Of a DNA stretch of 64,000 nt, positions 3,401-38,882 are shown piece by piece (position 1 is the first letter of the stretch; each line of letters opens with the position of its first letter). This DNA is from Bacteroidales bacterium (GTDB lineage: Bacteria > Bacteroidota > Bacteroidia > Bacteroidales > FEN-979). The notes below the pieces were generated by a model. The model made no database searches, had not been told where the DNA came from, and worked only from the letters and a program-made list of their open reading frames with translations. Where the stretch lies: NCBI GenBank assembly GCA_963682005.1, contig OY820914.1, positions 4,878,005 through 4,942,004 on the forward strand, in the 5' to 3' direction. The position numbers and the translations under genes were made by a program.

Positions 3401-6400
3401 TGAAACCGGAAGGGGAATTGTATTGTAACAGATGGCCTGATCAGCGGATGCCGACCCCGCGCTGTACTCTGAAATGAATGTCAATACCATCGAATCATCT
3501 GCATTTGGGCATGGGGAGCATCCTGACGCATGGATGAATAGGGTAACATGGCCCAACAGGAGATCAGTTATGCCCGCAGTGTAAGTTGCATGCAAATAAT
3601 GACTATTATCCCACGTCCCGTCACCGGAAGATGACCAGGTGACGCTCGTGGCATCCTGAGCTGATGCATTAGTAAGTGTGAATGGAAGATTCCTGCAGAC
3701 TGTTGTGTCTGCTCCTGCATATACCTCCGGAATATGGCTTATGCAGAGTTTCATTGTGTCTGTGACTTCGGAACAGGGAGGATCACCGGTCAGATGCAGT
3801 ACAAGATATGTACAAGATCCGCAACTGGTTCCGATATCGCCCTCACCCGGGATATAGGATGGGTGAAGGATATTCGGATCGGTGAAATAACCGGTGCCAG
3901 TTGTTGTCCAGTATAGCGTTTTATAATTGTGTGCTGAGGCAAGGCACAGACAGTAGGTGGAATTTTCACAGATGATTGCATCCGGCCCTGCATTGGCTTT
4001 TGGTCCTGGCACAATATTTAATGTCACATAATCTACAGCACTAACACACAATCCATTGCTTAATGCTGTCAGATATAGGGTAACATGACCAAGAGAAATA
4101 TCTGACAATCCGGGATAGTAAACAGGATGAAGCAAAGCAGGATTATTAAAATAGCCGCTACCTGTTGTTGCCCAATACAGCGAAGTATAATTGGATGCCG
4201 ATGATGTTGAAAGATAATAAGGCGTTTCTTCGCAAATCGTGGTATCATGACCGGCATTGGCGAAAGCCGGGGAATTGATATTGATCACGACCTCATCAAC
4301 CGTTGAATCGCAAACACCATTTCCAATACTCCTGAAGAATGTATATGAACCTGCAACCAGGTTATTGACAAAGGTTGTCGGACTGCCAGGATTGATAATA
4401 CCAGCAGTCGATGGGCCATCATATTGAGACCACATCCCAGATCCGTAAAGCGGAATATTCCCCTGCAAAGTTGCTGAAATTGTCGGGTCTGAAGTGAGAC
4501 AAAGTTGTTGATCCTGGCCGGCATAAGCCGGTGAGGGGGAATGATAATTGATGATGGTTGTTTCATCAGAGGCTGAGCAGTAAATGCCATTGAAATATGT
4601 TGTTATGGTATACCTGAATATATAAGGTATAGTGCTTCCTATCATCCCGGAAACGATCGCAAAAGGTGAATTTGATGGACCGACAGACACGGGACCAGGG
4701 CCCGATACAAATGACCAGTTACCTGAACTTCCCTGTGGTGGCCAGTTCCCTGCCAGCATTGCAGTGTACTGGTCACAATACACCTGGTCAGGACCGGCAT
4801 CAATCGCTGGAACAGGGTTTACGGTCACGATTATGTGATTTGAGGTCACACTTCCGCAGGAATTTGTGTTTGTGACAGAATAATCGCCTCCTGTGAAAAC
4901 GGTAATTGATGGTGTTGAAGCTCCTGTACTCCAGGTCCCACCACTGTTTCCTGAAAGGATAACACTTTCCCCTTCACAAAATGTAGTCGCCCCGCCTGCC
5001 GATATGATCGATGCAACCGGCAGCACGTTCACGGTTACTATTATGTGGTTTGATGTCACACTTCCGCAGGAATTTGTATTTGTTACAGAATAATCGCCTC
5101 CCGTGGAAACCGTAATGGACGGTGTTGTTGCTCCTGTGCTCCAGGTCCCGCCTGTATTTCCTGAAAGGATAACACTTTCCTCTTCACAAAAGGTCGTCAC
5201 CCCATCTGCCGAAATGATCGATGCAACCGGCAGCGGATTTACCGTTACAATAATGTGATTTGAGGTCACACTTCCGCAGGAATTGGTGTTTGTTACAAAA
5301 TAGTCGCCACTTGTGAAAACGGTAATTGATGGTGTTGAAGCTCCTGTACTCCAGGTCCCGCCTGAATTTCCTGAAAGGATCACACTTTCCCCTTCACAAA
5401 ATGTAGTCGCCCCGCCTCCCGATATGATCGATGCAACCGGCATCGGATTGACCGTTACAATAATATGATTTGAGGTCGCACTTCCACAGGAATTTGTGTT
5501 TGTTACAGAATAATCACCGCTTGTGAAAACGGTAATTGATGGTGTTGTTGCTCCTGTACTCCAGGTCCCACCAGTATTTCCTGAAAGGATCACACTTTCC
5601 CCTTCACAAAATGTAGTCGCCCCGCCTGCCGTTATAATTGATGCAACCGGCAGCGTATTGACCGTTACGATTATGTGATTCGATGTTACACTTCCGCAGG
5701 AATTGGTATTTGTTACAGAATAATCGCCGTCTGTGAAAACGGTAATTGATGGTGTTGTAGCTCCTGTACTCCAGGCCCCACCTGTATTTCCTGAAAGGAT
5801 AACACTTTCCCCTTCACAAAAGGTCGTCGCCCCGCCTGCCGAAATGATCGATGCAACCGGTAGCGCGTTCACGGTTACTATCATGTGATTCGATGTCACA
5901 CTTCCACAGGAATTGGTGTTTGTTACAGAATAATCGCCGTCTGTGAAAACGGTAATTGATGGTGTTGTAGCTCCTGTACTCCAGGTCCCGCCTATGTTTC
6001 CTGAAAGGATAACACTTTCCCCTTCACAAAAGGTCGTCGCCCCGCCTGCCGAAATGATCGATGCAACCGGTAGCGCGTTCACGGTTACTATCATGTGATT
6101 CGATGTCACACTTCCACAGGAATTGGTGTTTGTTACAGAATAATCGCCATCTGTGAAAACGGTAATTGATGGTGTTGTAGCTCCTGTACTCCAGGTCCCG
6201 CCTATGTTTCCTGAAAGGATAACACTTTCCCCTTCACAAAAGGTCGTCGCCCCGCCTGCCGAAATGATCGATGCAACCGGTAGCGCGTTCACGGTTACTA
6301 TCATGTGATTCGATGTCACACTTCCACAGGAATTGGTGTTTGTTACAGAATAATCGCCATCTGTGAAAACGGTAATTGATGGTGTTGTAGCTCCTGTACT

Positions 6401-8218
6401 CCAGGTCCCGCCTATGTTTCCTGAAAGGATAACACTTTCCCCTTCACAAAAGGTCGTCGCCCCGCCTGCCGAAATGATCGATGCAACCGGTAGCGCGTTC
6501 ACGGTTACTATCATGTGATTCGATGTCACACTTCCGCAGGAATTTGTATTTGTGACAGAATAATCGCCTCCTGTTAACACGGTAATTGATGGTGTTGAAG
6601 CTCCTGTGCTCCAGGTTCCACCTGAATTTCCTGAAAGGATCACACTTTCCCCTTCACAAAAGGTCGTCGCCCCGCCTGCCGATATGATCGATGCAACCGG
6701 CAGCGCGTTCACGGTTACTATTATGTGATTCGATGTCACACTTCCGCAGGAATTTGTATTTGTGACGGAATAATCGCCTCCTGTTAAAACGGTAATGGAT
6801 GGTGTTGTTGCTCCTGTGCTCCAGGTTCCACCTGTATTTCCTGAAAGGATAACACTTTCCCCTTCACAAAAGGTCGTCGCCCCGCCTGCCGTTATAATTG
6901 ATGCAACCGGTAGCGCGTTCACGGTTACTATTATGTGATTCGATGTCACACTTCCACAGGAATTTGTGTTTGTAACAGAATAATCGCCTCCTGTGAAAAC
7001 GGTAATTGATGGTGTTGTAGCTCCTGTACTCCAGGTCCCGCCACTGTTTCCTGAAAGGATAACACTTTCCCCTTCACAAAATGTCGTCGCTCCTCCTGCC
7101 GTAATGATTGATGCAACCGGGAGCGGATCGACGGTCACGATAATGTGATTTGATGTCACACTTCCGCAGGAATTTGTGTTTGTAACAGAATAATCGCCTC
7201 CTGTGAAAACGGTAATTGATGGTGTTGTTGCTCCTGTACTCCAGGTTCCACCAGTATTTCCTGAAAGGATCACACTTTCCCCTTCACAAAATGTCGTCGC
7301 TCCTCCTGCCGTTATAATTGATGCAACCGGCATCGGATTGACCGTTACAATAATATGATTTGAGGTCACACTTCCACAGGAATTTGTGTTTGTAACAGAA
7401 TAATCGCCACCTGTGAAAACGGTAATGGATGGTGTTGTAGCTCCTGTACTCCAGGTTCCACCTGAATTTCCTGAAAGGATAACACTTTCCCCTTCACAAA
7501 AGGTCGTCGCCCCGCCAGCCGAAATGATTGACGGCAAAGGTGAAAGTTGTATCTCCACCATATTATTATGCAGAATAACAGCCCCTGCCGTTGTAAGTCC
7601 TCTGCCAAGAAGGGTTGACCCTTCTAATAATGAAATTGCACCTCCTGACACAACTGTACCCCTGAAAACAGAATAATCCCCCAACTCGAATGCTCCCGTT
7701 ATCTGCCAGTAGACATTGCAAATACAGGCTGAATTAGTCAGAAGCACATTTGAAAATGTACTTGTTGATAAAGCCCCATCTATCCGGATTATAAATAAGG
7801 CATCAGGATCTCCGCCTGCATCGAGGGTCAGATCACCTGTTAAGTTTGCAGCCGCTCCTGCGAAGTAAACTCCAGGAGTTAGTATCTGACCTCCCAATGA
7901 AGTCCCCAAAACAACCCCGCCCAGCGTGCTCAAATAGCCATAGGCAAGGCTCAAATCTGTTGAGGCCTGTGCTAAAACAGGATCTCCCACAGTATAGATT
8001 TGTCCTGTTATTGTACCCGGAGGAAATCCAGTCAAAGCACCTGCATAGGTGCCAATATCACCGGTTATTGATGATAGTCCGTTATTTGTAAATTCTCCGG
8101 CCGAAGTAAATAGTGCAAAACCGGAAGCAGCACCCAGGTCAGGAGCTTGCCCAAAATTCACATTTAGCATAACAAACAGAAAACCGATTGTGGATGCAAA
8201 GCGGAGATGTTTTTTCAT
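452..8218 (-). CDS. giant T9SS-secreted surface protein: signal peptide, DUF3494 (ice-binding-like) domain, 13 tandem 70-aa Ig-like repeats, further PKD/Ig-like and SprB-type repeats, CarboxypepD_reg-like, dockerin-like and cohesin-like modules, T9SS C-terminal sorting domain
   Basis: 2588-aa ORF. The N-terminus MKKHLRFASTIGFLFVMLNVNFGQAPDLGAASGFALFT...ITGDIGT is typical of DUF3494. The C-terminus NYPNPFKNNTTIIYTL...YLYRIIVDG...KIVFTR is typical of the Por_Secre_tail sorting domain. Confidence 0.9.
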   Translation of the reverse strand: MKKHLRFASTIGFLFVMLNVNFGQAPDLGAASGFALFTSAGEFTNNGLSSITGDIGTYAGALTGFPPGTITGQIYTVGDPVLAQASTDLSLAYGYLSTLGGVVLGTSLGGQILTPGVYFAGAAANLTGDLTLDAGGDPDALFIIRIDGALSTSTFSNVLLTNSACICNVYWQITGAFELGDYSVFRGTVVSGGAISLLEGSTLLGRGLTTAGAVILHNNMVEIQLSPLPSIISAGGATTFCEGESVILSGNSGGTWSTGATTPSITVFTGGDYSVTNTNSCGSVTSNHIIVTVNPMPVASIITAGGATTFCEGESVILSGNTGGTWSTGATTPSITVFTGGDYSVTNTNSCGSVTSNHIIVTVDPLPVASIITAGGATTFCEGESVILSGNSGGTWSTGATTPSITVFTGGDYSVTNTNSCGSVTSNHIIVTVNALPVASIITAGGATTFCEGESVILSGNTGGTWSTGATTPSITVLTGGDYSVTNTNSCGSVTSNHIIVTVNALPVASIISAGGATTFCEGESVILSGNSGGTWSTGASTPSITVLTGGDYSVTNTNSCGSVTSNHMIVTVNALPVASIISAGGATTFCEGESVILSGNIGGTWSTGATTPSITVFTDGDYSVTNTNSCGSVTSNHMIVTVNALPVASIISAGGATTFCEGESVILSGNIGGTWSTGATTPSITVFTDGDYSVTNTNSCGSVTSNHMIVTVNALPVASIISAGGATTFCEGESVILSGNIGGTWSTGATTPSITVFTDGDYSVTNTNSCGSVTSNHMIVTVNALPVASIISAGGATTFCEGESVILSGNTGGAWSTGATTPSITVFTDGDYSVTNTNSCGSVTSNHIIVTVNTLPVASIITAGGATTFCEGESVILSGNTGGTWSTGATTPSITVFTSGDYSVTNTNSCGSATSNHIIVTVNPMPVASIISGGGATTFCEGESVILSGNSGGTWSTGASTPSITVFTSGDYFVTNTNSCGSVTSNHIIVTVNPLPVASIISADGVTTFCEEESVILSGNTGGTWSTGATTPSITVSTGGDYSVTNTNSCGSVTSNHIIVTVNVLPVASIISAGGATTFCEGESVILSGNSGGTWSTGASTPSITVFTGGDYSVTNTNSCGSVTSNHIIVTVNPVPAIDAGPDQVYCDQYTAMLAGNWPPQGSSGNWSFVSGPGPVSVGPSNSPFAIVSGMIGSTIPYIFRYTITTYFNGIYCSASDETTIINYHSPSPAYAGQDQQLCLTSDPTISATLQGNIPLYGSGMWSQYDGPSTAGIINPGSPTTFVNNLVAGSYTFFRSIGNGVCDSTVDEVVININSPAFANAGHDTTICEETPYYLSTSSASNYTSLYWATTGSGYFNNPALLHPVYYPGLSDISLGHVTLYLTALSNGLCVSAVDYVTLNIVPGPKANAGPDAIICENSTYCLCLASAHNYKTLYWTTTGTGYFTDPNILHPSYIPGEGDIGTSCGSCTYLVLHLTGDPPCSEVTDTMKLCISHIPEVYAGADTTVCRNLPFTLTNASAQDATSVTWSSSGDGTWDNSHYLHATYTAGITDLLLGHVTLFIHASGCSPCPNADDSMVLTFISEYSAGSASADQAICYNTIPLPVSATMPAGGSGDNHYQWQYTTDRSNWYELSGATDLIHSPGALTTTSWYRLQQTDETCILTVLTNEVEIFVFDHLNPGAVHSNQAICYSTVPDPVYADPPTGGQGIYNYLWQYSYEGVNWFDLPGETTLTYAPGSLIQTTRYRLQQNDIKCGTIYTELVTIIVNPLLTGDVSHSDIACFGTSEGTITISNTSGGGDGYEFMITGYPWQAGNIFTSLAPGSYDIFIRDASQITCIIDLGHVIIDEALQLVPSIDGDQDVCELSGAIYSTEPGMTEYFWTVTGAVSFTGQGTSSIYVDWGYSGIGTVAVHYRCSGETTIAVIINQLPVIHLAGPTPVCLNYDGNVYTTDPGMANYVWSVTQGIITAGGGLLDNTVTVKWTIAGVGNVSVNYADASTCAALVPVDVPVFVLPSPSFHIEGPANVCEYEQNAVYFAVFDTPSPIPGHVYAYQWIVTDNGVGLVSFTGQNSPTINVDWGDGSAGQVAVTVTDITAGEPLQCAACVIFPVGINPLPNPEISGCPEVVADDTCCYEVAYLPGHLWNWTIDGGEILDCGCGYRTCIHWLTPGSHIITVCETDLATGCSKCTEFTVIVHAGHSMLSGTVNYKNQYETPLNGVDLQLVNSAGTIVATTTSGPGIDADGYYAFTNIATGTYTINSSYSLAWGGVNATDALIDQLVFLGLYTFDHFDSIAGNVNADNYINPTDALWIKMRAIGMINYFPAGSWKFTDGPVVVPPGGATYQIFGLSIGDVNHSNIPAGLKEANSIAIVEDGTISVNPNESFLYSLRAGRDINMGAMTLFLKFNQDFLDVEEVVSAPEGIQYTMTDGKLNLAWSDPNAMKLSFHDALITLRLKVKSGIDYPVQLFSINEGSEFAGPDARIIETPNLLLSSVRTANSSLKFSLSNYPNPFKNNTTIIYTLPERGHVKLMLANLFGESVRTLVDEEQKAGYYQVAIDPSNIFLTTGTYLYRIIVDGVTTSYIKTNKIVFTR
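4811..7540 (-). repeat. 13 tandem 210-bp (70-aa) coding repeats inside the giant surface protein gene
   Basis: The 210-nt period was checked at 4861/5071 and 5881/6091/6301. The protein unit is PVASIISAGGATTFCEGESVILSGN.GGTWSTGATTPSITVFTGGDYSVTNTNSCGSVTSNHIIVTVN.L, repeated 13 times. Confidence 0.95.
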
Positions 8219-36122: not shown

Positions 36123-36476
36123 TTATTCTTCTTTTACTTTTTCCGCCTTGGCTTTATTACGCTTCTTGGTATTATAGGCAATGGCGTGTTTATCCAGGGC
36201 AACCGTCAGAAAACGGAGGATCTTTTCATCCCTTTTAAACATGATTTCCCAATCCTTAACCACGGTGGGTTCGGCTTTGAATTCAACAAGGTGATAAAAA
36301 CCGGTCGATTTTTTCTGGATGGGGTAAGTCAGCTTTCGCAATCCCCAGTTATCCTCCAAAATGATCTCGGCACCTTTGCTCACAAGGTATTTCGAATACC
36401 TTTCTACCGTTTCCTTCATCTGTTCATCAGACAAAACGGGAGTCATAATGAAAACGGTTTCATACTGTCGCAACAT
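36123..36476 (-). CDS. rpsF: 30S ribosomal protein S6
   Basis: [19 protein letters not shown]. It is the first gene of the rpsF-rpsR-rplI operon. Confidence 0.95.
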
Positions 36477-36573
36477 GTGTTTGATTTTTAAGGTTTAAAA
36501 TTACTGTTATGTGTTTTTTTAATGGACGGCAAAATTAAGAAGAATAATTGGAAATACCAAGAGTTTTGATTTG

Positions 36574-36608
36574 CTGTTGGCTATTGGCTTTTAGCTATTG
36601 GCTTTTTA
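36574..36608. repeat. inverted, degenerate heptamer array (ctgttgg-type x5) overlapping the four-helix-bundle gene stop codon
   Basis: ctgttgg ctattgg cttttag ctattgg cttttta, the reverse complement of the ccaacag array at 36989-37058. Confidence 0.8.
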
Positions 36609-36963
36609 TTGATGCAGACAATGTTGAAATTAACCTATTGATTTGTTTTTCTTCTTTATCAAGGCATGTTGAGACTTTGTTGAGTGATTCTTTTGATAAA
36701 ATTTCCAGATTTTGAATGACTAAAAGATGTGTTTCGAGTTCGAAAGCAGAACCTAAAGCTATTTCGAGAAATCTTTTGTACTCTGTTTCACTGGTTCTGC
36801 TACAACCTTCTGCAATATTGGCGGGAATTGAAACTGCTGCCCTTGTAAGTTGGCTCTTCAAACCAAACTTTTCATCATTCGGCAACATTTTCGCAATTTT
36901 ATATATTTCAGTGACAAGCAATATTCCATCCTTCCAAATCTCTAAGTTCCGAAAATTTCTCAT
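36595..36963 (-). CDS. four-helix-bundle protein (23S rRNA intervening-sequence protein / Avd-like family)
   Basis: The ATG at 36963 gives MRNFRNLEIWKDG...GLKSQLTRAAVSIPANIAEGCSR...FLEIALGSAFELETHL, the family signature. The ORF-track extension to 37041 only translates the heptamer array. Confidence 0.85.
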   Translation of the reverse strand: MRNFRNLEIWKDGILLVTEIYKIAKMLPNDEKFGLKSQLTRAAVSIPANIAEGCSRTSETEYKRFLEIALGSAFELETHLLVIQNLEILSKESLNKVSTCLDKEEKQINRLISTLSASIKSQ

Positions 36964-36988
36964 TTTAACTAAATTTACAAATTTAGCG

Positions 36989-37058
36989 CCAACAGCCAAC
37001 AGCCAACAGCCAACAGCCAACAGCCAACAGCCAACAGCCAACAGCCAATAGCCAACAG
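36989..37058. repeat. heptamer array ccaacag x10 (one ccaatag), between the ispF stop and the four-helix-bundle gene start
   Basis: Ten contiguous 7-nt units. The array ends at 37058 and the ispF stop codon occupies 37059-37061. Confidence 0.95.
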
Positions 37059-37538
37059 CTAAAAGCCTTCAGCCAACAGCACTACGGCATAAGCCGAAAT
37101 CCCTTCTTCCCTGCCGATGAACCCGAGGTTCTCGCTGGTTTTTGCCTTGATGGAAAGCTGGCTTTCGCTGATCCCCATGACCTCGGAGAGGACCCGGATC
37201 ATTTCTGGAACGTACTGGTTTATTTTTGGAGACTGTAAAACGATGGTTGAATCGATATTCTGGATAGCATATGATCTGGAGCTTATCAATTCGATGGTTC
37301 TGGAAAGGAGATTCTTGCTGTCGATCCCTTTGAATTGTGGATCTGTATCGGGAAATTGGTTTCCTATATCACGGAATCCTGCCGCACCGAGCAATGCATC
37401 GCAAATGGCATGGATAAGGGCATCAGCGTCTGAATGTCCTGTGGCTCCTTTTGAATGGGGTAAGAGAATCCCCCCCAGCCAGAATTCCCGTCCGGGTTCC
37501 AGTTTATGGGTGTCGAAGCCGAAGCCGATTCTTAACAT
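37059..37538 (-). CDS. ispF: 2-C-methyl-D-erythritol 2,4-cyclodiphosphate synthase
   Basis: RIGFGFDTHKL and GHSDADALIHAICDALLGA. Confidence 0.95.
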   Translation of the reverse strand: MLRIGFGFDTHKLEPGREFWLGGILLPHSKGATGHSDADALIHAICDALLGAAGFRDIGNQFPDTDPQFKGIDSKNLLSRTIELISSRSYAIQNIDSTIVLQSPKINQYVPEMIRVLSEVMGISESQLSIKAKTSENLGFIGREEGISAYAVVLLAEGF

Positions 37539-37688: not shown

Positions 37689-38882
37689 TTACTTTGTTTT
37701 TGACTCCTTGTCTGCCTTTGATGGTGCATCAAAGTTGAACAGCAGGGTGAACTGCATGGTGTTCTGGAGCGGGTTGTTGCTTTTAACGGGGATCAGGTAA
37801 GAAAAGTCAAGACCGAACACATTGTACCTTAAACCGGCACCCAGCGTGAAGAACTGACGGGCTCCCTTGTACTTTGATTCCCAGAAATAGCCGGCACGAA
37901 TTGCAAACAGTTTGTTATACCAGTATTCTGCAGATGCAACCACATTGATCTCCTGCATCTCTTCCTTAAAACCATAAGGTGCATCATAGAATGACTGTAT
38001 GATCCCCTGAGGTACGGAAACATTGTTATCCATCCCTTTAACAATCACATAGTCCTGGGCTGTTGAATCATATTCCCTGATGGGAGGTGTCGGGACCAGC
38101 AGTTTATTCAGGTCAAGCGCAAATGAAAGCCGGTTGTAATCATCGATATCCATTGTAAATGACGGCCCGATTCGAAGATTGGTCGGAATAAAATCTTTCA
38201 TCACCGTCGTGCTGCTATATGAAATTTTGGTCCCGATATTGGAGATATCAACACCGAAATTGATTGAAGATCCGGCAAGGCCGGAAATCTCAAGTTCCTT
38301 ATGATAATAAAGAGCGATATCGGCAGCCACTGAAATGCCAGGCCGGGTTTCCACGGTTGAATTTAACCCCGGTGTAAGGTTTGAATAGATGAACCGGGCT
38401 GCCACGGCCGCAGAGATAACAGGACTGAATTTCCGTGAGTAGGCGGCATCGACTGCAAATTCATTGGGTTTGTAATTCCCAAGGGACTGACCAAGGTCAT
38501 TCGTGTATTCTACAGATCCCAGCGAGAAAAAACGCAGTGACATGGCAATCGCCTGTTTGTCATTGATTTTCCAGTAACCTGAGAGCGAGGAAAGACCGAT
38601 ATCATTTACGAGTCCGTGAAGCCAGGGAACATACCCGATGCCGATTCCGAATTGTTTTTCTGCAAATGCATACTTTGCCGGATTCCAGAACATCGAATAG
38701 GCATCCGGTGTTGTGGAAACCCCGATATTACCCAATCCTCCACCTCTGGCATCCGGAGCGATAAGCAGGAACGGGACAGCTGTGGTTATGGGATTTGCTT
38801 CTTCCTGGCCAAAACTTTTTGTGGTAATAATTACGCATGTCAGCAATAACATTAAGTAGATCTTCATTTTTTGCATTCTCAT
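37689..38882 (-). CDS. porV: T9SS outer-membrane shuttle/channel protein PorV
   Basis: PFLLIAPDARGGGLGNIGVSTTPDAYSMFWNPAKYAF. It is about 390 aa and lies immediately downstream of porU-family genes, as in model organisms. Confidence 0.85.
   Translation of the reverse strand: MRMQKMKIYLMLLLTCVIITTKSFGQEEANPITTAVPFLLIAPDARGGGLGNIGVSTTPDAYSMFWNPAKYAFAEKQFGIGIGYVPWLHGLVNDIGLSSLSGYWKINDKQAIAMSLRFFSLGSVEYTNDLGQSLGNYKPNEFAVDAAYSRKFSPVISAAVAARFIYSNLTPGLNSTVETRPGISVAADIALYYHKELEISGLAGSSINFGVDISNIGTKISYSSTTVMKDFIPTNLRIGPSFTMDIDDYNRLSFALDLNKLLVPTPPIREYDSTAQDYVIVKGMDNNVSVPQGIIQSFYDAPYGFKEEMQEINVVASAEYWYNKLFAIRAGYFWESKYKGARQFFTLGAGLRYNVFGLDFSYLIPVKSNNPLQNTMQFTLLFNFDAPSKADKESKTK

Follow-up and report, generated by a model that had tools for sequence, protein, structure and literature searches.

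The intervening sequences (IVSs) of rRNA and the heptamer arrays of intergenic spacers have both been without an explanation for decades. The short tandemly repeated repetitive (STRR) heptamers of heterocystous cyanobacteria, reportedly described by Mazel et al. in 1990, are said to be intergenic and to fall into several word families per genome, with no function assigned. IVSs of 23S rRNA that bear an open reading frame (ORF) occur in Leptospira and Xanthomonas and are best studied in Coxiella burnetii (PMC4990558). The Coxiella IVS is 428 nt long, carries an S23p ORF and is closed by a 28-bp terminal stem that RNase III cuts in the middle; two to three tandem GACAGAT heptamers, their number varying by strain, precede the ATG (PMC4990558). 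Here we describe a gene of the same protein family that lies between ispF and rpsF, enclosed by inverted heptamer arrays (arms), in a 64,000-nt stretch of the genome of a Bacteroidales bacterium (“the window”; contig OY820914.1, positions 4,878,005 to 4,942,004). With a probability of about 60%, this locus is a mobile IVS-type cassette in which the gene and its arms form one unit. Coordinates are window positions, and the features of the locus lie on the − strand; positions elsewhere in the genome (5.27 Mb, one contig) are prefixed G000. The 23S rRNA gene found in this genome (G000:2762049–2764947) matched the model over its full length and contained no insertion, indicating that the ispF cassette was not an rRNA IVS.

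The gene (36963–36595) encodes a 122-aa product with an isoelectric point (pI) of 7.7. Its sole Pfam match was PF05635 (E 1.1e-34; 119.2 bits, cut-off 33.8; profile positions 1–105 of 106), a family also described by TIGR02436 (S23p, 23S rRNA IVS protein) and among the commonest of unknown function. This agreed with the initial annotation, which had called a four-helix-bundle gene of the 23S-IVS type from the sequence alone. Relatives of the window protein numbered 2952 at E <= 1e-20, and the nearest among 5.8 billion proteins was 66% identical. By sequence the product matched PDB entry 2GSC (XCC0516 of Xanthomonas campestris; E 7e-21). An AlphaFold2 monomer model had four helices at low confidence (predicted local distance difference test, pLDDT, 63). 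A Foldseek search with this pLDDT-63 model returned 2GSC (template modelling (TM) score 0.76–0.81, 39% identity), 2RLD and two structures of Avd, the accessory protein of diversity-generating retroelements (DGRs), namely 4DWL (TM 0.72/0.79) and 8UB7; the modelled fold is thus the one common to Avd, as had been proposed.

The order first read from the DNA, namely the ispF end, an array, an AT palindrome, the ORF and an inverted array, was found in place. The ispF coding sequence (37538–37059; 2-C-methyl-D-erythritol 2,4-cyclodiphosphate synthase; PF02542, E 2e-64) ends in GTG CTG TTG GCT GAA GGC TTT TAG. It closes with three heptamer units (21 nt), CTGTTGG CTGAAGG CTTTTAG, the stop falling in CTTTTAG. 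They open an upstream arm of 13 tandem heptamers (37079–36989; Tandem Repeats Finder, period 7, 13.3 copies; units parsed in sevens from 37079), which continues past the stop with CTGTTGG, CTATTGG and 8 × CTGTTGG. Ten units do follow the stop, as had been stated, but one of the ten copies of CTGTTGG then counted is the variant CTATTGG. The arm ends 25 nt ahead of the PF05635 ORF. The AT palindrome CTAAATTTGTAAATTTAG (36986–36969, read off the sequence) is built as CTAAATTT-GT-AAATTTAG and measured 18 nt, not the 25 nt given before. The downstream arm (36606–36573), the reverse complement of the upstream arm, is the 34-nt sequence AAAAGCCAATAGCTAAAAGCCAATAGCCAACAGC, parsed as AAAAGCC AATAGCT AAAAGCC AATAGCC AACAGC; the last three codons of the ORF and its TAG stop (36597–36595) fall inside it. 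Recomputing the match of 36573–36594 with the reverse complement of 37059–37080 gave exactly the 19 of 22 positions claimed. Inverted-repeat pairs between the two arms were 84–86% complementary, and the whole cassette measured ~510 bp (37079–36573).

A stable stem with the ORF in its loop had been suggested, and folding predicted one. The 536-nt − strand RNA had a minimum free energy (MFE) of −156.5 kcal/mol (z = −4.7; 0/100 shuffles as stable), with the arms forming the outer stem. By themselves the arms formed a 35-bp duplex (17 AU, 15 GC and 3 GU pairs) of −57.3 kcal/mol, against −22 ± 4.6 kcal/mol for shuffled arms.

An ORF finder lets the four-helix-bundle ORF begin farther upstream, with the TTG at 37041 (36595–37041, − strand; 148 aa), and so runs through the heptamers (MAVGCWLLAVGCWLLAVG...). 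Array read-through of this kind is a likely source of wrong annotated N-termini in the PF05635 family. On exact look-up of the 122-aa and 148-aa products, no second contig carried either.

Bracketing by inverted arrays was scored by local alignment of the 230 nt upstream of a gene with the reverse complement of the 230 nt downstream, with a threshold of at least 35. Of 20 PF05635 genes in the genome, 17 were bracketed at this strength, compared with 4 of 2000 when the same geometry was placed at random, indicating that chance was excluded as the origin of the flanking inverted repeats. When all ORFs of 70–450 aa (n=8274) were scored, 42 reached at least 36, and 17 of these were PF05635 genes. 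The proposal of a cassette thus withstood a catalogue of the family in its own genome. Each cassette had a copy-specific arm word of 7–8 nt (e.g. AATAGGC, GGTGGTTA, GTAACAGA, GGGATGC, GAAGAGT and TAGCGAAA), and the armed copies were all basic (pI 7.7–9.9). Three of the 20 copies were armless, two of them acidic (pI 5.4–5.5; G000:4121113 and G000:3058921); these two may be domesticated copies. G000:4121113 has syntenic orthologues, 77–81% identical, in both sister genomes. The closest sister-genome homologues of G000:3058921, 69–82% identical, have strong arms.

A 21st PF05635 gene (G000:3955477–3955611) is broken after 44 codons, and a hairpin resembling a repetitive extragenic palindrome (REP), TGAATTACCCCGGCCTTCAGGCCGGGG, and a Y1-transposase gene resembling a REP-associated tyrosine transposase (RAYT) follow directly. 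By this arrangement, it looks as if a selfish unit has inserted itself into another. Genes of the Y1_Tnp (RAYT-like), DUF559 and GIY-YIG types are small, multi-copy and flanked by GC-rich palindromes, while GxxExxY (PDDEXK_3) genes have array-like inverted arms beginning 0–1 nt past the stop. These genes bracketed by inverted repeats lie at G000 positions 1276999, 3540496, 2228401 and 5159508; 536399, 2568179 and 5207517; 2899260 and 2899764; and 2211275, 2342542 and 3277750. DUF559, GIY-YIG and Y1-transposase-like genes were considered as the same class as the PF05635 cassettes and set apart, since their flanks are GC-rich palindromes and not tandem arrays; GxxExxY, with its array-like arms, was not lumped with them either.

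The porV-ispF-rpsF synteny is kept across the bacterial family, and in 0/30 relatives did a PF05635 gene, with or without repeats, lie between ispF and rpsF. Two same-genus genomes (G001 and G002) contained 22 and 16 PF05635 genes. Most of these 38 copies were non-syntenic: the genome of the window has the flanking genes and no cassette. In G001, for example, a 470-nt cassette with GAATATT-type arms lies between nuoJ and nuoK, where the spacer in G000 is ~20 nt, and G002 has a cassette at a site where G000 has 26 nt. In these two clean filled/empty pairs (L051 and L053), the arms were gone at the empty site, indicating that the gene and its arms are gained or lost as one unit, even in tight operons. 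Cassettes thus turn over among the species of a single genus. There is good support for mobility of the whole unit, in line with the earlier suggestion of a mobile element in place of an ordinary gene; that suggestion had read “mobile or RNA-processed”, and “mobile” is the better supported of the two.

A survey across phyla comprised 134 cassettes, of which 20 came from the genome of the window, 38 from the genus and 76 from a single-protein scan of named genomes spanning at least 10 phyla (Bacteroidota, Chloroflexota, Acidobacteriota, Nitrospirota, Planctomycetota, Verrucomicrobiota, Actinomycetota and several proteobacterial classes). Arms scored at least 30 in 81 of the 134. Among the 76 distant loci, 24 scored at least 35 and 32 at least 30, compared with 0/144 and 2/144 shifted controls. 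The armed distant loci were nearly all of period 7, many with the word type TYRGCNN found at the ispF cassette. Arm 6-mers were shared by 2% of pairs below 45% protein identity, by 35% at 55–65% and by 79% above 65%, and in a Mantel test of arm word against protein 0/2000 permutations reached the observed correlation; arm word and protein are co-inherited. The cassettes have a polarity: on the sense strand, 56 have a G-rich and 22 a C-rich upstream arm. In 50 of 76 armed cassettes a co-oriented ORF ended at the arm or inside it, and in 25 of the 76 its stop codon lay within the arm. The ispF cassette is a well-defined member of a class of four-helix-bundle cassettes of the IVS type that spans phyla and has apparently not been described before. 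The ispF locus shows that this design can exist apart from rRNA, with the unit of gene and arms residing in ordinary operons.

Several results weigh against a mobile cassette of the IVS type. No target-site duplication was visible at the L051 and L053 filled/empty pairs, and the product has no nuclease, recombinase or transposase domain. As no database protein is closer than 66%, the time and direction of the event are not datable, and loss in all relatives in place of a gain here is formally conceivable. Gene-less arrays in the genome of the window matched same-genus and own cassettes alike (median 35 vs 31), and the largest array families, AATTACG (84 arrays) and AGCATCC (40), have no resident gene. 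The sequence TAAATTTG (36985–36978), inside the palindrome and 15 nt 5′ of the ATG, matches TAnnTTTG, which we take to be the Bacteroidota −7 promoter box. This box, lying in the loop, may act as the gene's own promoter, and a transcript started there would be without the upstream arm. Arm mismatches in 81 cassettes showed no G-U bias (122 transitions G-U-compatible on the sense vs 139 on the antisense strand), and co-orientation with neighbouring genes was ~60% for armed and ~80% for unarmed copies.

These last two results bear on the level at which the arms are kept complementary. The cassettes of the window's genome alone gave a G-U count of 31 vs 17, a signal that was gone over the 81 cassettes, and G-U wobble was dropped as a sign of an RNA-level stem. 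The orientation of armed cassettes, 42:27 relative to the upstream and 44:29 relative to the downstream neighbour, was not significant. Co-orientation was therefore ruled out as a sign of read-through dependence, being also below that of unarmed copies, and at ~60% it makes a strict need for read-through transcription unlikely. In 13 of the 20 PF05635 copies, the ispF cassette not among them, a conserved promoter-like motif lay between the upstream arm and the ATG, so that their own transcripts would miss the upstream arm. The absence of G-U bias, the absence of orientation bias and the position of this motif inside the arms thus favour upkeep of complementarity at the DNA level. RNase III cleavage would be compatible with this wherever both arms are co-transcribed, and such co-transcription is plausible at the ispF locus.

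The motif itself consists of an A/T-rich tract and GTATTACCTTTT-N10-11-CCGATTAATG in a fixed 22–23-nt geometry, has 52 copies genome-wide and usually stands 5–20 nt before an ATG. It is also found ahead of GIY-YIG, GxxExxY, DUF559 and Y1-transposase-like genes and, in the window, at ~55202–55233 (+), before a 91-aa ORF that is followed by a Mur-ligase-like gene. It had no Rfam match and has the appearance of an operator or of a promoter for an alternative sigma factor.

The alternative that survives best, though we consider it unlikely, is a host-owned, non-mobile RNA element, in which an ordinary resident gene has arms that give a long-range stem in the transcript of ispF and the four-helix-bundle gene, which would serve for release by RNase III, for stabilising the mRNA or for insulating ispF from rpsF. 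The stability of the predicted stem speaks for it, as does the RNase III cut shown for the homologous IVS stem in Coxiella. No terminator-like site was found between ispF and the cassette, which also fits such an element, nor was there one between the cassette and rpsF. Further support comes from three homologues of the Polaribacter type (L149, L151 and L153; 65–66% identical), located between hemL and hemE: their spacers of 24 and 44 nt consist of arm throughout, indicating that these copies must be co-transcribed with hemL and hemE. The RNA of a whole Polaribacter-type cassette was not more stable than shuffles (z = −0.95), and its MFE structure still paired the arms. Against a host-owned element stand the gene's absence from the site in the 30 relatives, the presence or absence of cassettes as units at many loci of one genus, the lack of wobble and co-orientation bias, and the occurrence of the same arm sequence at three unrelated loci.

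These three loci also bear on the origin of the arm that ends ispF. In relatives, ispF has a conserved end, ...AYAVVLL, and then a variable tail of 2–10 aa (SS, EKA, EKKES etc.); here the tail is AEGF, encoded together with the stop by arm units in the block GCTGAAGGCTTTTAG (37073–37059). In the Polaribacter-type cassettes hemL ends in GTA GCT GAT AGC TTT TAG, and its block GCTGATAGCTTTTAG was identical to that of ispF at 13 of 15 nt. The next units beside hemL, CCTTTTG and CTATTAG, match in order CTGTTGG and CTATTGG beside ispF. At a third locus, a 63% homologue has CTATTAG CTTTTAG CCTTTTG CTATTGG. The units CTGAWRG/CTATTAG, CTTTTAG, CCTTTTG/CTGTTGG and CTATTRG are thus common to all three loci in this order, and ordered arm sequence is kept across Bacteroidota classes. 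Since hemL is closed by this outer-arm sequence as well, the arm belongs to the cassette and was not seeded from ispF. Inherited cassette sequence thus makes up the outermost 28 nt of the arm, with the frame-closing unit among them; the (CTGTTGG)x8 run alone is a local expansion. What the ispF locus adds to the class is a conserved outer arm that gives a host gene its C-terminus and stop. A cassette can also remodel the 3′ terminus of an essential gene and do no harm.

The initial annotation had left two readings side by side, that the arm reaches into ispF or that it was seeded from it. The first held, with three units inside the coding sequence; the second is contradicted by the hemL block. 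Seeding would mean that a Leu-Leu heptamer (CTG TTG G) at the ispF 3′ end was expanded by slippage and copied inverted past the gene, and we hold this to be very improbable. The first CTGTTGG does overlap the conserved VLL codons, the eightfold run clearly is a product of local slippage, and relatives have other arrays at the same spot. Yet GCTGAAGG-CTTTTAG-CTGTTGG-CTATTGG has its ordered homologues at the hemL-hemE and third loci (63–66% identical proteins), the TYRGCNN word type recurs around homologues in many phyla, and arms and empty sites failed a test for shared 7-mers in 5 of 6 pairs. Word-guided integration, or seeding by the target, was likewise rejected, shared 7-mers exceeding controls in 1/6 pairs only.

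In three relatives (L003, L004 and L009) the ispF-rpsF spacer carries a solo array straight after ispF, namely GGTCATTA x6, AATTCAG/TCCCGACTG and GGTAACAG x16, the last being the word of the cassette at G000:4577302. The ispF-rpsF spacer is a recurrent array site.

Arrays without a gene are abundant. The genome of the window has 1083 tandem arrays of period 6–9, with 222 distinct units. CNNTTRG arrays of at least three units numbered 42; four tight hairpins were gene-less, and only the ispF cassette held a gene. For 521 of 998 gene-less arrays the unit was found in resident cassette arms, compared with 243 (maximum 269) in a letter-shuffled null. Specificity of resident proteins for these satellites was considered and dropped, as the arrays fit sister-species cassettes equally well; the counts do not speak for mobilisation in trans by resident proteins. 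This equal match, together with the largest families being gene-less, indicates that the array vocabulary is lineage-wide and not bound to resident proteins. One such hairpin lies beside the cassette, in the porV-ispF gap (37690–37539; 5′ arm 37690–37655, 3′ arm 37603–37539). Its arms form a 35-nt pair, 89% complementary, around a loop of ~50 nt (−58 kcal/mol, z = −6.6); the 3′ arm is (GCTACTTC)n and runs up to the ispF ATG, and the octamer word AGTAGCGA/AATAGCGA is the arm word of the PF05635 cassette at G000:3460434.

Elsewhere in the window, a solo array of 13.5 octamers (GGTGAGGT / GGTGAAGT) occupies 53936–54043 (+). A Mur ligase gene (52646–53938) takes its TGA stop from the opening triplet of the array, and anmK comes next; this is the second case in the window of an array giving a host gene its stop.

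With so many arrays in the genome, and with unrelated solo arrays in the same spacer of relatives, an ordinary small gene might by coincidence have come to lie between two slippage-born, STRR-like microsatellites, which is scarcely credible and already contradicted, as matching inverted words flank 17 of 20 PF05635 genes vs 0.2% of controls, bracketing holds across phyla and arms vanish with the gene at empty sites.

Least credible of all is that the gene is the Avd of a DGR: the modelled fold is alike, and close homologues give a weak match to PF22296 (bAvd), but the genome's six reverse transcriptase (RT) genes are multi-copy ORFs of 413–417 aa (putatively of group-II-intron type, from size and copy number) with the nearest ~250 kb off, which argues against a DGR Avd, no template/variable repeat (TR/VR) pair lies nearby, and twenty copies per genome are unlike a DGR.

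The gene order on the − strand is porV, octamer hairpin, ispF, cassette and rpsF. The gene porV (PF19572) is at 38882–37689, and rpsF (ribosomal protein S6; PF01250, E 6e-29), the first gene of its operon, at 36476–36123. The sequence cttaattttgcactcc is kept 5′ of rpsF in the spacers of relatives; here it appears as TAATTTTG (36537–36530), the −7 promoter box of rpsF, 3′ of the cassette. At Rfam gathering thresholds no family was found in the window, and near the locus there was only a chance snoRNA match. A 210-bp unit is repeated 12.9 times, with 91% identity, at 4817–7528, and is probably a repeated protein domain.

Under the mobile-cassette reading, the element would have inserted whole at the far 3′ end of ispF, displacing a short variable tail, so that its outer arm (GCTGAAGG-CTTTTAG) now codes for the last residues and stop of ispF; the inner (CTGTTGG)x8 would be a later, one-sided slippage expansion. 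In the family at large, the gene and both arms come and go jointly, the arm word diverging with the protein while the arms stay complementary, and in intergenic spacers the family would leave behind gene-less arrays and hairpins in large numbers, built of the same words. Complementarity may be kept in DNA by conversion or hairpin templating between the arms. The basic protein, if pentameric as Avd is, may bind its own repeat word and aid maintenance or spread of the cassette. On read-through from ispF, which meets no terminator-like site, the arms would pair as a ~35-bp duplex; such a duplex would be an RNase III-type substrate as in the homologous 23S IVS, and a cut would free the cassette RNA from the host transcript.

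A wider proposal is more tentative, and we regard it as possible without expecting it to hold in full. PF05635 proteins may be oligomeric readers of short nucleic-acid words, each maintaining and spreading its own heptamer-armed cassette. The logic would resemble that of RAYTs and the REP doublets forming hairpins (REPINs), with a non-enzymatic, Avd-like scaffold recruiting host replication, repair or RNase III. ORF-bearing 23S IVSs, thousands of STRR-like intergenic heptamer arrays and cassettes of the present kind would then be one element class, and the outer arm (GCTGAWRG-CTTTTAG) would be shaped to land on any host gene end and close its frame. If so, the separate puzzles of PF05635, rRNA IVSs and heptamer arrays would merge into one testable system. 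For annotation, the C-termini and stops of housekeeping genes, and many small- or long-ORF calls through arrays, can be cassette-derived.

Full-text literature searches found no paper on PF05635/heptamer cassettes of IVS design outside rRNA, and the comparison with known systems was made one by one. The cassette has inverted arms; with no duplication at L051 or L053 and no transposase domain, it falls outside insertion sequences and miniature inverted-repeat transposable elements. It resembles REPIN-RAYT systems in that a gene is flanked by an inverted short repeat which is lineage-specific and also dispersed as gene-less hairpins. It differs from them in that the cargo is a non-enzymatic four-helix bundle and not a Y1 (HUH) nuclease, the arms are tandem 7–8-mers and not single palindromes, and the gene is not stably passed on by vertical descent; the genome also contains true RAYT-like genes, which have GC-rich REP hairpins. 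With STRR sequences it has in common tandem 7-nt intergenic units in several word families per genome, but the host belongs to the Bacteroidota and the arrays are the paired arms of gene cassettes. Avd is a basic, nucleic-acid-binding pentamer that also binds a partner enzyme. It has a four-helix-bundle fold like that of the window protein as modelled, at 9–11% sequence identity; its context of an RT and a TR/VR repeat pair has no counterpart near the window gene. The S23p homopentamers XCC0516 (2GSC) and BT_0352 (2RLD) have both family and fold in common with the window protein; they are structures without a known function, and the window protein was modelled as a monomer only.

The closest system is the ORF-bearing 23S rRNA IVS, and the likeness goes further than the IVS-like topology that had been claimed. 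Both are units of 430–510 nt with complementary ends, a stem of ~28–35 bp and an S23p/PF05635 ORF in the loop; both have tandem heptamers between the 5′ arm and the ORF (13 at ispF, GACAGAT x2–3 in Coxiella); and both are sporadic and apparently horizontally acquired. They differ in that RNase III excision is known for the Coxiella IVS and that the ispF cassette lies between protein genes and not in rRNA helix 9, 25 or 45, is 1 of 17 such units in its genome, and gives the upstream gene its stop.

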